Below, piece by piece: positions 446 through 5,292 of a stretch of DNA of 5,292 nt (positions within the stretch are counted from its first letter, which is position 1; every line of letters starts with the position of its first letter). Origin of the DNA: a virus; IMG/VR virus record IMGVR_UViG_3300045988_008161, positions 1-5,292 of that record; one strand, written 5' to 3'. Under the pieces are notes generated by a model. That model was not told where the DNA came from, did not search any database, and saw only the letters and a program-made list of their open reading frames with translations. Position numbers and translations under genes: made by a program.

Positions 446-454
446 ATGGTGTCA

Positions 455-490
455 GTGGGCCTAATCCTATCAAGAAACGATTAGGCCCAC
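455..490 (+). other. Perfect 12-bp stem-loop 10 nt after the VP4 stop
   Basis: GTGGGCCTAATC (455..466) and GATTAGGCCCAC (479..490) are exact reverse complements around a 12-nt loop, ctatcaagaaac. No T-run follows on either strand, so it is not a classical terminator. It could be an mRNA 3' stabiliser or an ssDNA structural element. Confidence 0.7.
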
Positions 491-676: not shown

Positions 677-710
677 TTTGCAAACATCATCTATTATATA
701 TAACTTGTTG
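677..710. promoter_or_regulatory. AT-rich tract flanking the trinucleotide repeat (candidate DNA-unwinding element)
   Basis: 8 G+C in 34 nt by hand count. It contains the 10-bp palindrome TTATATATAA (694..703). On the minus strand it carries a perfect TATAAT (complement of 693..698). Confidence 0.4.
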
Positions 711-725
711 TAGTAGTAGTAGTAG
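711..725 (+). repeat. (TAG)5 trinucleotide repeat, equal to five DnaA-trio-type motifs (3'-GAT-5')
   Basis: tagtagtagtagtag is read directly. GGAG (726..729), a 4-nt G-rich cluster (CTCC on the minus strand), lies between the repeat and the first TGTTGAA repeat. Confidence 0.9.
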
Positions 726-729
726 GGAG

Positions 730-746
730 TGTTGAAATGTTGAATA
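730..746 (-). promoter_or_regulatory. Two tandem DnaA-box-like 9-mers (iterons), 8-nt period, next to the GC cluster and trios
   Basis: The minus strand reads TATTCAACA (746..738) and ATTTCAACA (738..730). On the + strand this is TGTTGAA at 730..736 and 738..744. Confidence 0.55.
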
Positions 747-803
747 CTATGAATTTTTATCCTTGGAACGATATTTTTTGGCTAATTTTAATGTTAATAC
801 TTT

Positions 804-831
804 TGTGGATAACTTGTTGAATTGTTGAAAG
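804..831 (-). promoter_or_regulatory. Perfect consensus DnaA box plus two iterons
   Basis: The minus strand reads CTTTCAACA (831..823), AATTCAACA (823..815), ag, TTATCCACA (812..804). TTATCCACA is the canonical high-affinity DnaA box. Confidence 0.65.
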
Positions 832-841
832 TGTAGCAATA

Positions 842-861
842 TGCACAAAACCATTTGTGCA
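842..861. promoter_or_regulatory. 20-bp palindrome (possible dimeric-protein operator or hairpin) between the two box clusters
   Basis: TGCACAAA (842..849) acca TTTGTGCA (854..861); the arms are exact reverse complements. Confidence 0.5.
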
Positions 862-867
862 ACTTTT

Positions 868-915
868 TGTGGAAAACCTGTTGAAAGTGTTGAAAGTGTT
901 GAAAACTGTGGTTAA
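868..915 (-). promoter_or_regulatory. Run of five tandem DnaA-box-like 9-mers
   Basis: The minus strand reads TTAACCACA (915..907) g TTTTCAACA (905..897) CTTTCAACA (896..888) CTTTCAACA (887..879) gg TTTTCCACA (876..868). TTTTCCACA fits the relaxed consensus TTWTNCACA. The iteron TTTTCAACA differs from it by one base. Confidence 0.6.
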
Positions 916-1012: not shown

Positions 1013-1041
1013 TTGACAAAAGAAGAACCATGTGGTATATA
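1013..1041 (+). promoter_or_regulatory. Strong sigma70-type promoter with extended -10
   Basis: TTGACA (1013..1018), a 17-nt spacer, TG at 1033..1034, and TATATA (1036..1041). An A/T-rich UP-like tract lies at 991..1010. AAGGAG (1051..1056) and the first ATG (1063) follow directly. Confidence 0.75.
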
Positions 1042-1724: not shown

Positions 1725-2193
1725 GTTTAGAAGCGCATACAGCGGCCACGTGAGGCATACGAGTCTGACCGGGGACGGACACGAACCCGAATACGAGTAC
1801 AAAGTAACCGAAACCGGCAGGGAGCTGGTGAAAACCGGCGAAAACGACGTCTATGCACTCATCCAGAGCCGACTGGATGAAACCAAAATCGAAAACATCA
1901 TCAAAAGAGCGACCTACGACCCGACTGCACTGGGCAGTTTTGACTGGACGAACAGCGAACAGATGGTGGACATCACCGACGCGCCGACGGACTATCACAC
2001 ATGGTACAACCGCATCGAGGACGCAAAAAAGCAGTTTGAAGCACTGCCTATCGAAATCAAAAACAAATGGGACAACGACGTGGAAAAGTACGTCATGGCC
2101 TACGGCACAGCAGAATGGGCCGACAAGATGGGTCTCCTGAAGGAAGAAAAGCCGGCTGAAAACGCGACAGAGAAAAAGGAGGCAGCAGAGTGA
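1717..2193 (+). CDS. VP3: Internal scaffolding protein VP3, 158 aa
   Basis: The ORF track gives a GTG start at 1702. I prefer ATG 1717 (MSEFRS...) because GAGGG (1704..1708) lies 8 nt upstream of it. The protein is acidic, and its C-terminal block DAKKQFEALPIEIKNKWDNDVEKYVMAY resembles the conserved gokushovirus VP3 scaffold motif as recalled. The stop overlaps the VP1 start (GTGA). Confidence 0.8.
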   Translation: MSEFRSAYSGHVRHTSLTGDGHEPEYEYKVTETGRELVKTGENDVYALIQSRLDETKIENIIKRATYDPTALGSFDWTNSEQMVDITDAPTDYHTWYNRIEDAKKQFEALPIEIKNKWDNDVEKYVMAYGTAEWADKMGLLKEEKPAENATEKKEAAE

Positions 2194-3782
2194 ACCGCAA
2201 CAGTGAATACAACTTTGCACAGAATCCGCAAGTAGGAGTAAGCCGAAGCAGATTCCAGCGCAACAGCGACAGCAAAACCACCTTCAACACGGGCGACCTC
2301 ATCCCGATTTATCTGGATGAGGTATTACCAGGAGACACGCACGAAATCGACATGGCCTGTGTCATGCGTATGGCAACGCCCATCTTTCCTGTCATGGACA
2401 ATGCTTTCTGCGACTTCTACTTCTTCTTCGTGCCGAACAGACTGCTGTGGGAACACTGGAAAGAGTTTATGGGCGAAAACAAAGAAACCGCATGGACGCC
2501 TAAAACAGAGTACAGCGTCCCGCAGGTCACAGCACCGGCAGAAGGTTGGGAAGAAGGAACTCTGGCGGACTATCTTGGTCTGCCTACCAAAGTAAAGGGC
2601 ATAAGCGTGAGCGCTCTGCCGGGCCGGGCATACGGCCTTATCTATAACGAGTGGTTTCGAAACCAAAACGTGACACAACCGACACTTGTAGAGGTAACGG
2701 ACGCAACCACAACCGGCAAAAACGACGGCAGCAAAACCAACGACAGCGCAATCACGCTAGCAAAGCCTCTCAAAGCGGCGAAGGTGTTTGACTACTACAC
2801 CGGAGCGTTGCCGGAGCCGCAGAAAGGCGAGCCGATTCAGCTACCTCTGGTAGGAGCAGCACCGATAAAGGCATACAGCGAGAAAGAGCTGAAAAACGTA
2901 AGAAACACGTTTACGTGGATAGCATCGGCAAATCCCATCGAAGTAGCAAACGTGAACAAAGACGGAACAATAGCAAACGGTCTGCCGACCAACTCATACA
3001 TGGGTGCAGACCTTAGCAGCGTCACCGCAGCAACCATCAATCAACTCCGACAGGCATTCCAAATTCAGAAGCTGCTGGAAAAAGACGCACGCGGCGGCAC
3101 GAGATACCGCGAAGTGTTGAGAGAGCACTTTGGAGTTATCTCACCTGACAGCCGGATGCAGATTCCGGAGTATCTGGGCGGCTACAGACTGCCTATTAAC
3201 GTGTCTCAGGTTATCCAGACCTCTTCGACCGACAACACGAGTCCGCTGGGCAACACGGCAGCGCTGAGCGTAACCACGATGAACAAACCTATGTTTACCA
3301 AGTCCTTTACGGAACACGGCTTTATCATGGGACTCGCAGTGGTACGAACCGACCAGACCTATCAGCAGGGCATCGAACGCATGTGGAGCCGCACCGGACG
3401 ATATGACTACTATTGGCCGGTACTGGCAAACATCGGCGAACAGGCCATTCTCAACAAAGAAATCTATGCACAGGGCAACACAAAGGACAATGAAGCATTC
3501 GGCTATCAGGAAGCATGGGCCGACTATCGGTATAAGCCGAGTAAGGTTACTGGCCTGTTCCGAAGCAACGCAAAACAGAGTCTCGATGCATGGCACTATG
3601 CACAGGACTACGACGCACTGCCTACTCTGAGCACCGCTTGGATGGAACAGGGCGAAGCCGAGATGAAGCGAACTCTTGCAGTACAGTCTCAGCCGGACTT
3701 TATCGCAGACTTTTACTTCATGAACAAAACAACGCGGTGTATGCCGGTGTACTCCATTCCGGGACTCATCGACCATCACTAA
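2190..3782 (+). CDS. VP1: Major capsid protein VP1 (Microviridae F-like jelly roll), 530 aa, GTG start
   Basis: ORF track entry. Hallmark microvirus VP1 blocks are RSRF, TTFNTGDLIPIYLDEVLPGDT, MATPIFPVMDN, FFFVPNRLLW, INQLRQAFQIQKLLEKDARGGTRY and IPEYLGG. AAGGAGG (2176..2182) lies 7 nt before GTG 2190. The first in-frame ATG lies inside conserved sequence. Confidence 0.95.
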   Translation: MNRNSEYNFAQNPQVGVSRSRFQRNSDSKTTFNTGDLIPIYLDEVLPGDTHEIDMACVMRMATPIFPVMDNAFCDFYFFFVPNRLLWEHWKEFMGENKETAWTPKTEYSVPQVTAPAEGWEEGTLADYLGLPTKVKGISVSALPGRAYGLIYNEWFRNQNVTQPTLVEVTDATTTGKNDGSKTNDSAITLAKPLKAAKVFDYYTGALPEPQKGEPIQLPLVGAAPIKAYSEKELKNVRNTFTWIASANPIEVANVNKDGTIANGLPTNSYMGADLSSVTAATINQLRQAFQIQKLLEKDARGGTRYREVLREHFGVISPDSRMQIPEYLGGYRLPINVSQVIQTSSTDNTSPLGNTAALSVTTMNKPMFTKSFTEHGFIMGLAVVRTDQTYQQGIERMWSRTGRYDYYWPVLANIGEQAILNKEIYAQGNTKDNEAFGYQEAWADYRYKPSKVTGLFRSNAKQSLDAWHYAQDYDALPTLSTAWMEQGEAEMKRTLAVQSQPDFIADFYFMNKTTRCMPVYSIPGLIDHH

Positions 3783-4629: not shown

Positions 4630-5292
4630 GCTGTGAAAGACCACTTATCAGAGTATACAACCCAAACGACCATAACATAACAGGGTCAATCATGACCCTA
4701 GAAAAATACAGAGAAAGAGCGCATAATCCAGAGGCGACATACGAAAGCCTAGCATATAGAAAAGATGTCATGCTGCTACCATGCGGCAAGTGTCTGGGAT
4801 GCAGACTCAGACAGCGACAAGACTGGGAGACCAGAATGTTGATGGAGTCAAAAACACTCACACCAGCATGGTTTTTCACTCTTACATGGAATCAAGAATA
4901 TGTGCCTGGAATGATAAGAGCAACAGGCGAACTTATACGTGGAGCAGTACACCAGTGGACAACGGGAGACGCGCCAGAAGTTGTGCAAATCCTATTGCAA
5001 GAGGACATGGTACTTTTTAACAAAAGACTCCGAAAAAAACAAGAAATGTCCGATAAATGGGGTACAGACCTCAGATATTTTTATTGCGGCGAATACGGCG
5101 AAACCACAGGCAGACCGCATCACCATGCAATCTATTATGGGTTAGAAATACCAGACCTTAAGAAAAAAAGAGGCAATAATCCATACTTTGAGAGCGAAAC
5201 AATAGACAACATCTGGGGAATGGGCAATGTAATAATTGCAGAGGCGTCACCAGAAACAATGACGTATGTAGCGGGATACGTGACAAAAAAAG
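4626..5292 (+). CDS. VP4: Replication initiation protein VP4, N-terminal part (runs off the window and continues at 1..445; full length 340 aa)
   Basis: It is absent from the ORF track because it has no stop inside the window. ATG 4626 overlaps the VP2 stop (ATGA), and GGGAGG (4611..4616) lies 9 nt upstream. Hand translation is open to 5292: MSCERPLIRVYNP...LLPCGKCLGCRLRQRQDWE...AWFFTLTWNQ...YFYCGEYGETTGRPHHHAIYYG...NIWGMGNVII. It shows a Cys cluster, RCR motif 1 (FFTLTW) and the HUH motif (HHH codons at 5118..5126). Position 5220 equals 17 + 5203, so it is in frame with ORF 17..445. Confidence 0.92.
   Translation, partial: MSCERPLIRVYNPNDHNITGSIMTLEKYRERAHNPEATYESLAYRKDVMLLPCGKCLGCRLRQRQDWETRMLMESKTLTPAWFFTLTWNQEYVPGMIRATGELIRGAVHQWTTGDAPEVVQILLQEDMVLFNKRLRKKQEMSDKWGTDLRYFYCGEYGETTGRPHHHAIYYGLEIPDLKKKRGNNPYFESETIDNIWGMGNVIIAEASPETMTYVAGYVTKK
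5204..5292. repeat. Terminal direct repeat, right copy
   Basis: Identical to 1..89. Confidence 0.97.

Follow-up and report, generated by a model that had tools for sequence, protein, structure and literature searches.

A non-coding block common to more than 100 gut gokushoviruses carries the parts of a Firmicute chromosomal origin in the same order, polarity and spacing. The block occupies positions 692-906 of the window (the whole stretch of DNA analysed, 5,292 nucleotides) and has sharp edges. It runs from an AT-rich tract through five TAG triplets and a 4-nt spacer to a tandem pair of boxes and another two box clusters, all in a single orientation. The gokushovirus genome is circular, with a length of 5,203 nt, and the module is located between the VP4 gene and a cluster of small ORFs. 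Our favoured explanation, to which we give a probability of about 0.65, is that at positions 677-906 the phage carries a copy or mimic of the basal unwinding system (BUS) in the chromosomal origin of Oscillospiraceae/Ruminococcus-type Clostridia hosts, and that the module would be opened by DnaA. The module would be oriC-like in its working, yet it is no oriC as a locus: its place is in a 5.2-kb ssDNA phage of the rolling-circle type, not on a bacterial chromosome between dnaA and dnaN, where an oriC fires once in each cell cycle.

Make-up and conservation of the block

The features of the region, with strand where one applies, are as follows.

446-490, minus strand: probable VP4 (Rep) rolling-circle origin, GTGGGCCTAATC (GTTTCTTG^ATAG) GATTAGGCCCAC then TGACACCA, with a 12-bp hairpin
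541-574: perfect 15-bp G+C-rich hairpin with flanking A and T runs, terminator-like, 3' of the VP4 gene
634-676: two 20-nt alternating purine-pyrimidine (CG/CA) tracts, Z-DNA-prone, abutting the AT-rich tract
677-701: AT-rich tract (~24-28% GC), the presumed DNA-unwinding element; host origins are AT-rich at the same place
702-713, plus strand: invariant AACTTGTTGTAG at the junction of AT-rich tract and triplets; phage-specific and missing from host origins
711-725, plus strand: five DnaA-trios, 5'-TAG-3' (3'-GAT-5'); host origins have 3-5 TAG at the same place
726-729: 'GC cluster', a G-rich spacer of 4 nt that reads GGAG; in hosts, GGGC or GGGGC
730-746, minus strand: trio-proximal tandem predicted DnaA boxes ATTTCAACA (730-738) and TATTCAACA (738-746), offset by 8 nt
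790-831, minus strand: middle box cluster, with degenerate TGTTAATAC (790-798), perfect TTATCCACA (804-812), AATTCAACA (815-823) and CTTTCAACA (823-831)
842-861: 8-bp hairpin TGCACAAA-ACCA-TTTGTGCA
865-906, minus strand: distal box cluster, nearly invariant, with TTTTCCACA (868-876), CTTTCAACA (879-887 and 888-896) and TTTTCAACA (897-905)
907-915, minus strand: box-like TTAACCACA, beyond the conserved block
948-987: conserved G+C-rich hairpin (GTCATGC...GCATGAC) in the interval between module and promoter
1013-1041, plus strand: predicted sigma-70-type promoter TTGACA-17-TATATA for the gene cluster from 1063, assigned by eye; a consensus scan was negative

All of the elements listed in an earlier, sequence-only reading of this DNA were recovered, each at its place in the window. 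That reading had counted ten boxes pointing in one direction. Ten 9-mers do share one direction, and an eleventh position exists at 790-798, degenerate in the window and TGTTGATAC or TGTTGAAAG in relatives. The box-like TTAACCACA, which had been included in the array, falls outside the block and is not conserved among 84 distinct relatives.

The repeats are far more numerous than expected. TGTTGAA occurs seven times on the plus strand at 730-903 (chance expectation 0.92 for the whole window), and none of 200 shuffles reached eight copies. Similarly, there are seven copies of TGTKGAWA, all on the plus strand within 730-904 (expected 0.72). The sole occurrence of TAGTAGTAG is at 711-725 (expected 0.01). 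TTWTNCACA is matched only by the minus-strand boxes TTATCCACA and TTTTCCACA; these two matches alone are not significant, being equalled in 17 of 200 shuffles. The GC fraction is 0.275 at 680-719 and 0.60-0.65 in the left flank.

Conservation was measured with the same 84 relatives. The triplet count is exactly five in 82 of them; thus, the array is no slipping microsatellite. Only the second triplet from the AT-rich end varies (TAG, TCG, GAG or CCG), and the three nearest the boxes are TAG or TAA in almost all relatives. The spacer is 4 nt long in 81 of 82 relatives while its sequence is variable. Likewise, the AT-rich tract differs in sequence but remains AT-rich. Boxes and trios are 91-97% conserved, compared with 62-78% for the AT tract and spacers. 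In the distal cluster, conservation reaches 95% or more in 36 of 42 columns, and at 702-710 (AACTTGTTG) the mean majority-base frequency is 0.95. At position 804, close relatives have TGTGGATAA as the box and more distant relatives TGTTGAAAA. Closely related phages differ in how their distal clusters are arranged, with box identity retained.

The block is more conserved than the coding genes. It is 91-97% identical between phages with ~50% protein identity in VP1 and ~44% in VP4, and in each of 89 cases out of 89 it has the one orientation. We read this high identity across diverged phages as a probable sign of selection or exchange. One relative, KT264799 (84% genome identity), has been reduced to the AT tract, the trios and a pair of boxes, having lost the box clusters. 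Nine related genomes share the inverted Rep hairpin yet are without the module. Hence, the module is accessory and not essential to replication of the lineage. A search of IMG/VR with the canonical pattern TTATCCACA-N0-16-CTACTACTA gave 89 loci, of which one was a microvirus with a chance-like match. The module is thus specific to this clade. Phage phi-CA82 is a separate case: its analogous module is oriented the other way with respect to its own genes.

Correspondence with Firmicute chromosomal origins

The core of the phage module was converted to the pattern TAGTAGTAG-N4-5-TGTKGAAAWGTTGAA and used to scan one genome for each of 185,579 species. By our own arithmetic, ~0.03 chance matches are expected. 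There were matches at 55 loci, each in a different genome, and 52 of these adjoin dnaA and/or dnaN: 40 lie between dnaN and dnaA, and 12 have one of the genes where the fetched stretch ends. The remaining three adjoin neither. Pfam confirmed the DnaA and DnaN assignments. At the matched loci dnaA comes first, followed by boxes, trios, the AT-rich tract and dnaN, as in the Firmicute unwinding region. At all 52 chromosomal origins the box pair TGTKGAAAWGTTGAA is identical. Most matches are to Oscillospiraceae, Ruminococcus or Selenomonas. The microvirus capsid protein VP1 was found in none of the 55 loci; hence, the matches give no evidence of lysogeny, and prophage copies were ruled against. 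The earlier reading had based its oriC-like order and polarity on the B. subtilis origin. The direct comparison with chromosomal origins replaces that basis and upholds the claim. The B. subtilis trio strand that it quoted, CTACTATTACTTCTACTA, is confirmed in PMC10201434.

The basal unwinding system and its rules are defined in PMC8287927, and the DnaD element in PMC10201434. In B. subtilis, incC comprises DnaA-box 6/7, the GC cluster, the DnaA-trios and an AT-rich region (PMC6669920, PMC8287927). A BUS has at least three consecutive DnaA-trios (3'-NAN-5', consensus 3'-GAT-5'), and the window has five at 711-725. The tandem second box and the spacer of ~4 nt are also present (boxes at 730 and 738; GGAG), as are the distal AT-rich tract (680-719) and the distal upstream boxes (790-831 and 865-906). 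The same sequence stands at bona fide chromosomal origins in 52 of the 55 matches. The complement of the trios on the minus strand, (CTA)5, carries TnnT repeats such as form a DnaD recognition element.

The box adjoining the trios should have no more than two mismatches to the standard motif, lie 0-16 bp from the trios and point at them, with a species-specific motif allowed (PMC8287927). Each of the two trio-proximal boxes in the window is three mismatches from TTATCCACA, so they conform only with the host dialect as the standard; ATTTCAACA is one mismatch from the host form TTTTCAACA. In 15 relatives the proximal box is TGTGGAAA (TTTCCACA on the other strand). The full 9-mer in the aligned relatives is TGTGGAAAA, i.e. 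TTTTCCACA, one mismatch from the consensus.

That TGTTGAA differs by one base from a DnaA box had been remarked on already. TGTTGAA is the dominant box variant in the matched host origins; a single origin may have as many as 18 copies, usually together with five TAG. Hence, the apparent 'iteron' is the host's DnaA-box dialect. TGTTGAA and TGTGGAA also exchange at homologous box positions among the phages, and DnaA-box arrays in large, unrelated phage contigs show both forms in alternation. The ratio of TGTTGAWA to TGTGGAWA is 171:34 in hosts with the DnaA recognition helix RDHSTIVY and 10:18 in those with the canonical RDHTTVLH. As far as sequences can tell, these counts show TTTTCAACA to be a natural DnaA-box dialect that correlates with recognition-helix substitutions. 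The dialect bears on origin prediction in Clostridia.

To our knowledge, the hosts of uncultured gut gokushoviruses are not known. The TGTTGAA boxes, the five TAG and the GGGC-type spacer point to Ruminococcus/Oscillospiraceae-like Clostridia, and the dialect of box, trio and spacer gives a means of host prediction for these phages. The idea that the module is a captured fragment of host oriC, which would reveal the host, survives in part. Architecture and dialect agree with it (Oscillospiraceae, Ruminococcus), but there is no long, high-identity match to a single origin. When the module was compared with the 55 origins by BLAST, only the core matched (83-100% over 35-60 nt), so direct capture from a sampled host was rejected; other matches were repeat-driven (70-75%). 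Capture and convergence are therefore indistinguishable, and the host is placed to family or order level only. There are further differences from the Firmicute origin. The phage boxes have a single orientation, whereas host origins also carry inverted boxes. In addition, the phage has the invariant AACTTGTTG, and a Rep hairpin stands where dnaN would.

The Rep origin and the possible role of the module

Microviridae are known to replicate by means of their own Rep protein with help from the host primosome. VP4, the Rep protein of this phage, has HUH and YxxxY motifs. Its putative cleavage site is in the hairpin at 446-490. The loop holds CTTG^AT (minus-strand loop GTTTCTTGATAG), and GACACC follows 15 nt beyond. 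The 30-bp phiX174 origin is annotated with a similar arrangement: CAACTTG^ATA, a 15-nt spacer counted from CAACTTG^AT, then GACCAC. Conversely, the gokushovirus spacer is a hairpin arm, and the element in the window is on the strand opposite the genes. In phiX174 there are no DnaA boxes and melting relies on supercoiling. Of the gokushoviruses with CTTGAN-N15-16-GACACC, 35 have it on the coding strand and nine, the window among them, on the non-coding strand. The stems covary and the loop is retained. Since the minus strand carries the Rep origin element, it is probably the packaged strand. The assumption that the plus strand is viral, with the trios on packaged DNA, is thus not supported.

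The hexamer AACTTG at 702-707 is that of the phiX174 nick. In addition, the 10-mer ACTTGTTGTA is also in a hairpin loop of Bdellovibrio phage phiMH2K, and ACTTGTT is in the SpV4 hairpin loop. A Rep nick site within the unwound tract was rejected as the main origin because most gokushoviruses in a VP1-selected survey are without the motif. Furthermore, those gokushoviruses have in common a hairpin with YCTTGAT and GACACC 15-16 nt later, an element that is inverted in the window, at 446-490.

The analysis shows the architecture of the sequence, its identity to genuine origins and the constraints on its conservation and spacing; DnaA binding, unwinding and all of the steps that follow are ones that we infer. 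In the double-stranded replicative form, host DnaA would bind the ten or eleven same-sense boxes, which are of the TGTTGAA dialect with two canonical boxes among them. ATP-DnaA would then polymerise from the two spacer-adjacent boxes onto the five plus-strand TAG trios and open the AT-rich tract at 677-701. Opening may load the host replicative helicase via DnaD/DnaB/DnaI, so that the replicative form is copied by a theta mechanism. Another possible effect is to make the neighbouring Rep hairpin single-stranded and cuttable by the HUH nuclease VP4. Because the Rep hairpin is just past the AT-rich tract, on the minus strand, opening could serve phage replication in one or both ways. The hairpin is on the AT-rich side in 86 of 88 module-bearing genomes, at a distance of 25-368 nt from the tract. 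In the window, 186 nt of hairpins and CG tracts separate the two, which weakens the link to direct melting. Autonomous replication of B. subtilis oriC needs a second box region; hence, firing of the module as a full origin is not assured.

More tentatively, the phage may be a hybrid replicon. The module would be fired by DnaA without Rep, perhaps in a plasmid-like carrier state, and the fork would then switch to rolling circle and yield antisense genomes. With the fork moving toward the hairpin, the minus strand would be the lagging-strand template and the Rep origin would become single-stranded. If true, this would be the first case of an ssDNA virus using the unwinding system of a chromosomal origin, and the first evidence of microviruses packaging the non-coding strand. 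Even apart from the hybrid scheme, a complete DnaA-box/trio/unwinding module in gut gokushoviruses would add host-initiator dependence to Microviridae replication. Plasmid-like persistence of gut microviruses has long been suspected but we know of no mechanism; the module offers a possible route. Searches of the literature on DnaA with gokushovirus, Microviridae or oriC gave nothing relevant and no prior description.

Small replicons that recruit the host initiator via DnaA boxes beside an AT-rich tract include pSC101, P1 oriR and oriC plasmids. The phage module shares this layout. However, those replicons have their own Rep and few boxes, whereas the phage has a complete trio-based system and no plasmid-type initiator. 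Plasmid iterons were rejected because the repeat unit of 8-11 nt is a DnaA box, not 17-22 bp, and no cognate plasmid initiator gene is nearby. No match to the module was found among 72,556 plasmids.

The array might instead bind DnaA without firing. It could titrate the initiator in the manner of datA and stall the host, or act as a sensor through which DnaA-ATP controls the promoter at 1013-1041. There are ten or eleven boxes per genome in a multicopy replicative form, and the box clusters are upstream of the only strong promoter, ~110 bp away. T5-like phages also have oriC-like arrays of eight DnaA boxes for which a non-replicative role is proposed. In the T5 injection-stop (iss) region these boxes, which include TTATCAACA-type variants, are conserved and non-coding, as in the module, and the role proposed for them is membrane tethering while double-stranded DNA is injected (bioRxiv 10.1101/866236). 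Conversely, the T5 boxes are paired in inverted repeats, and both trios and an unwinding element are missing (bioRxiv 10.1101/866236). A sink or sensor makes the five invariant trios, the fixed 4-nt spacer and the AT-rich tract superfluous, yet they are the best-kept parts. Furthermore, KT264799 has kept the core and lost the clusters, the opposite of what a sink predicts. We consider this role unlikely.

Rather less likely is a priming signal on the minus strand, if that strand is packaged, with (CTA)5 allowing DnaD/DnaB/DnaI or primase to start complementary-strand synthesis. Firmicute primase prefers CTA start sites. In favour of this, the minus strand carries the Rep origin element, the region has no structure when single-stranded, and DnaD binds the trio-complementary strand as single-stranded DNA in vitro (PMC10201434). 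However, a priming signal leaves the ten double-strand-type boxes and their conservation unexplained. DnaA boxes are unreadable on unpaired DNA; in the centroid fold they stay unpaired, none is made double-stranded by a conserved hairpin, and a weak pairing of 796-811 with 840-855 is not retained in relatives. The opposite orientation of the phi-CA82 module also argues against such a signal. Masai and Arai reportedly described the A site of the ABC primosome as a DnaA box in a hairpin on single-stranded DNA. That site resembles the module in that a single-stranded replicon uses DnaA for priming. It was rejected here since the boxes have a single orientation and stand in no hairpin.

It is very improbable that TGTTGAA is an iteron recognised by VP4, by VP5 or by the product of a small ORF, with only an incidental likeness to DnaA boxes. 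Rolling-circle and CRESS replicons typically have direct repeats beside the Rep origin, and AACTTGTTGTAG is phage-specific and invariant. Against this, the same repeats, trios and spacing are at 52 chromosomal origins without phage genes. The block is 91-97% identical where Rep is ~44% identical, and so does not co-vary with Rep. The region matches no protein family, and by PHROGs the gene set is ordinary, without a further candidate for DNA binding. Repetitive sequence is the only point in favour of a functionless relic, assembly chimera or chance low-complexity sequence, and its presence in more than 100 independent circular contigs and ~50 GenBank genomes (human, pig, monkey and dog samples), with conservation above that of coding genes and counts that shuffles never reach, makes that explanation negligible.

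Flanking features

Coding potential was rejected for the ORF at 857-979, which is without a family and has a 3' part that is not conserved. A search for known RNA families gave none, with only a sub-threshold match to the sodF sRNA at 541-609. Spo0A 0A-boxes (TGNCGAA) were also rejected: there are zero in 446-1062, and the single match in the window is within VP1 (expected 2.8).

A purine-pyrimidine tract similar to that at 634-676 (GCGCGCACGCGCGCACGCGCG) precedes the module in many relatives. In the hairpin at 842-861, TTGTGCAAC is conserved, and the 5' arm is swapped for a different hairpin in divergent relatives. The promoter of the relatives is at the same place and reads TTGACA-17-TATAAT with an upstream TG. 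The phage genome also has strong Shine-Dalgarno sites, consistent with Clostridia hosts.

The module and its setting

The window comprises a circular gokushovirus genome of 5,203 nt, with positions 5204-5292 repeating bases 1-89. All genes are on the plus strand. The module sits in the sole long non-coding stretch (446-1062). The relevant features are as follows.

4626 wrapping to 445, plus strand: VP4 (Rep)
446-490, minus strand: putative VP4 origin, inverted, with CTTG^AT and GACACCA reading on this strand
634-676: two perfect alternating purine-pyrimidine tracts (CG/CA), 20 nt each, abutting the AT-rich tract
702-713: AACTTGTTGTAG, the best-conserved string anywhere in the block
948-987: G+C-rich hairpin GTCATGCTCTTCG...GCGCATGAC, between the module and the promoter, kept in KT264798 and MG945157
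1063-1724, plus strand: small ORFs, followed in order by VP3, VP1 and VP2 (all plus strand)
2190-3782, plus strand: VP1

A strong AGGAG-type ribosome-binding site precedes every gene and, in relatives, a perfect TTGACA-17-TATAAT promoter is immediately upstream of the first small ORF. Hence, we infer a Firmicute-like host. The CG/CA tracts would be prone to Z-DNA formation. In many relatives GCGCGCACGCGCGCACGCGCG is found at this location, and CGCGCG lies beside the AT tract in a few host origins (L128 and L147).

The sequence-only reading described a repeat array, five DnaA-trios, DnaA boxes and an AT-rich tract, and motif counts bear this out. TGTTGAA occurs seven times on one strand within 174 nt (0.9 expected genome-wide), and all seven copies of TGTKGAWA fall in 730-904. 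The sequence (TAG)5 occurs once in the genome. One perfect and one near-perfect DnaA box were found, and the DNA left of the triplets is 27% GC.

Conservation of the block among phages

The block is present in approximately 50 GenBank gokushoviruses, obtained from faecal samples of humans, pigs, monkeys and dogs. Scanning IMG/VR with one 18-nt composite box gave at least 120 loci; 97 among the 120 matches listed were microvirus-sized contigs. We aligned 84 distinct copies. The limits of the block are sharp (692-906). The sequence AACTTGTTG is invariant and exactly five triplets follow in 82 of the 84 copies; variation is tolerated only at the second, counted from the AT-rich end. The spacer, of variable sequence, is 4 nt long in 81 of 82 copies. 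Box sequences are strongly conserved and the stretches between them are variable. At three box positions, TGTTGAA in one phage set is replaced by TGTGGAA in another. Thus, these are interchangeable versions of one site. The distal box clusters are reshuffled among close relatives, with box identity retained. Such a pattern is what one would expect of arrayed protein-binding sites that include a core of constrained spacing, and is at odds with a gene, an RNA or a slipping microsatellite.

In KT264799 (84% identical genome-wide) only the AT tract, AACTTGTTG, five TAG triplets and two boxes remain (3520-3585), and a small insert containing an ORF replaces the box clusters. This argues that the unwinding core is the most important part. 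Identity of the block is 91-97% between phages with VP1 only ~50%, and VP4 only ~44%, identical. Conversely, some phages with proteins 84% identical to one another have blocks of only 80-87% identity. Hence, the block either travels from lineage to lineage as a cassette or is under unusually strong constraint.

The string AACTTGTTGTAG is retained even in the degenerate module of one gokushovirus (L311) and is absent from the host origins. In Bdellovibrio phage phiMH2K the hairpin loop is made up of its 10-mer ACTTGTTGTA, and in SpV4 of TTACTTGTTAT. One possibility is that AACTTGTTGTAG serves as a second Rep site; another is that it is what remains of the box junction ATAACTTGTTGAA found at 808-820.

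Likeness to bacterial chromosome origins

We scanned GTDB, with one genome per bacterial species, for the trio, spacer and tandem-box core (TAGTAGTAG-N4-5-TGTKGAAAWGTTGAA). There were 55 matches, compared with ~0.03 expected by chance according to our own arithmetic. Forty lie between dnaN and dnaA; for 12 more, one of these genes is at the edge of the fetched stretch. The remaining three (L161, L168 (Candidatus Improbicoccus) and L154) have neither gene in the fetched 8 kb, and in the two reduced endosymbiont genomes among them the origin may have been separated from dnaA. No microvirus capsid gene was found at any of the 55 matches. Pfam confirmed DnaA and beta clamp in the six flanking proteins tested. 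The order at matched origins is dnaA, boxes, trios, AT-rich tract, dnaN. This is the layout of the Firmicute unwinding region, defined experimentally in B. subtilis (PMC8287927, PMC10201434), and the scan upholds the B. subtilis-like order proposed from sequence alone.

The matched genomes are mostly Oscillospiraceae, Ruminococcus (including R. flavefaciens), Ruthenibacterium, unclassified Clostridia and Selenomonas. Five TAG triplets are usual, with up to 18 TGTTGAA boxes, most of which share one orientation. The suggestion that the phage had captured an oriC stands in part: the core and overall layout match these origins but the whole block matches none of the 55. Identity in the core is 83-100% over 35-60 nt, in part because the search pattern demands it, and the box arrays align at 70-75%. 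The arrangement of core, ~45-nt spacer, box cluster, gap and box cluster matches four origins (L146, L143, L158 and L164). We take the block to have been acquired from a host origin long ago, or to have kept following host origins as they change; it may instead be convergent.

TGTTGAA had been called an iteron. The comparison identifies it as the DnaA-box dialect of the matched bacteria. The ratio of TGTTGAWA to TGTGGAWA in origin boxes is 171:34 for genomes with the DnaA recognition helix RDHSTIVY, and 10:18 for those with the canonical RDHTTVLH; the search pattern set one or two boxes per locus, which cannot create this difference. The substituted positions correspond to T435 and H439 of the E. 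coli protein, both of them base-contacting residues. Together, these data suggest a shift of DnaA-box specificity in Oscillospiraceae and Ruminococcus. If true, this matters for origin-prediction tools built on the E. coli box. In unrelated large phage contigs (L044, L118, L101, L061/L077/L111, L095 and L120), TGTGGAAAA and TGTTGAAAA alternate in DnaA-box arrays, mostly with an 11-nt period. TAGTAGTAGTAG also lies ~150 nt from the array in L061, L077 and L111.

The probable Rep origin and possible roles of the module

Gokushoviruses fetched by VP1 similarity alone have one strong hairpin in common, with covarying stems, the loop YCTTGAT and GACACC 15-16 nt after the loop motif. The annotated phiX174 origin has CAACTTG^AT, 15 nt, then GACCAC. 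Given this likeness, the gokushovirus element is very probably the VP4 origin. It is on the coding strand in 36 genomes and on the other strand in 21, including the window. Coding-strand AT skew is -0.12 ± 0.04 for the former and +0.34 ± 0.04 for the latter, with no overlap. At four-fold sites of the longest ORF, the 36 genomes have 53% T and 6% A, and the 21 have 11-15% T and 29-34% A. Thus, the nick-motif strand is T-rich and A-poor in both classes. Most simply, this would mean that the strand packaged by the window's clade is the one antisense to the genes. We treat this as a strong lead rather than a result, since each class is perhaps only one clade and phiMH2K departs from any simple rule.

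Every genome that bears the module also has the hairpin in inverted orientation. The two are 25-368 nt apart (median 83) in 86 of 88 genomes, with the hairpin invariably beyond the AT-rich end. Another nine related genomes carry the inverted hairpin but lack the module, which is therefore accessory.

The best-supported account, to which we assign a probability of about 0.65, is that a host-origin unwinding module recruits DnaA to the replicative form and opens the DNA beside the Rep origin. DnaA would hold the plus strand via the TAG trios. The strand freed would be the minus strand, bearing (CTA)5, the Rep hairpin and its key sequence. The (CTA)5 contains TnnT repeats recognised by DnaD (PMC10201434). 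Helicase loaded on the minus strand would travel toward the hairpin, making it single-stranded lagging-strand template. HUH nucleases require single-stranded DNA. Such an arrangement is suggestive but, having been inherited from one ancestor, provides no independent evidence. The outcome could be theta-type copying, Rep licensing or both.

A DnaA sink or promoter sensor is an unlikely alternative, since constraint is strongest on the trios, the AT tract and the length of the spacer. Rather less probable is a priming signal on the packaged strand, acting through DnaD or primase, which leaves the boxes unaccounted for. Iterons for a phage protein are very improbable: both the existence of 52 chromosomal copies and the preservation of the block across divergent Reps contradict this reading. 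We give almost no weight to an artefact or relic.

The searchable literature yielded no report of a DnaA box or an oriC-like element from Microviridae; the nearest phage precedent is the DnaA-box array in the T5 injection-stop region (bioRxiv 10.1101/866236). An analogous module with canonical boxes occurs in microvirus phi-CA82 (NC_015785, 3685-3850), in a region annotated 'putative non-structural protein'. The order is TGTGGATAA, two TTATCCACA, TTATCAACA and TTTCAACA, the last of these abutting (CTA)6, after which comes an AT-rich tract. Relative to the genes, its orientation is opposite to that in the window, and it was apparently acquired independently, to suit another host dialect.
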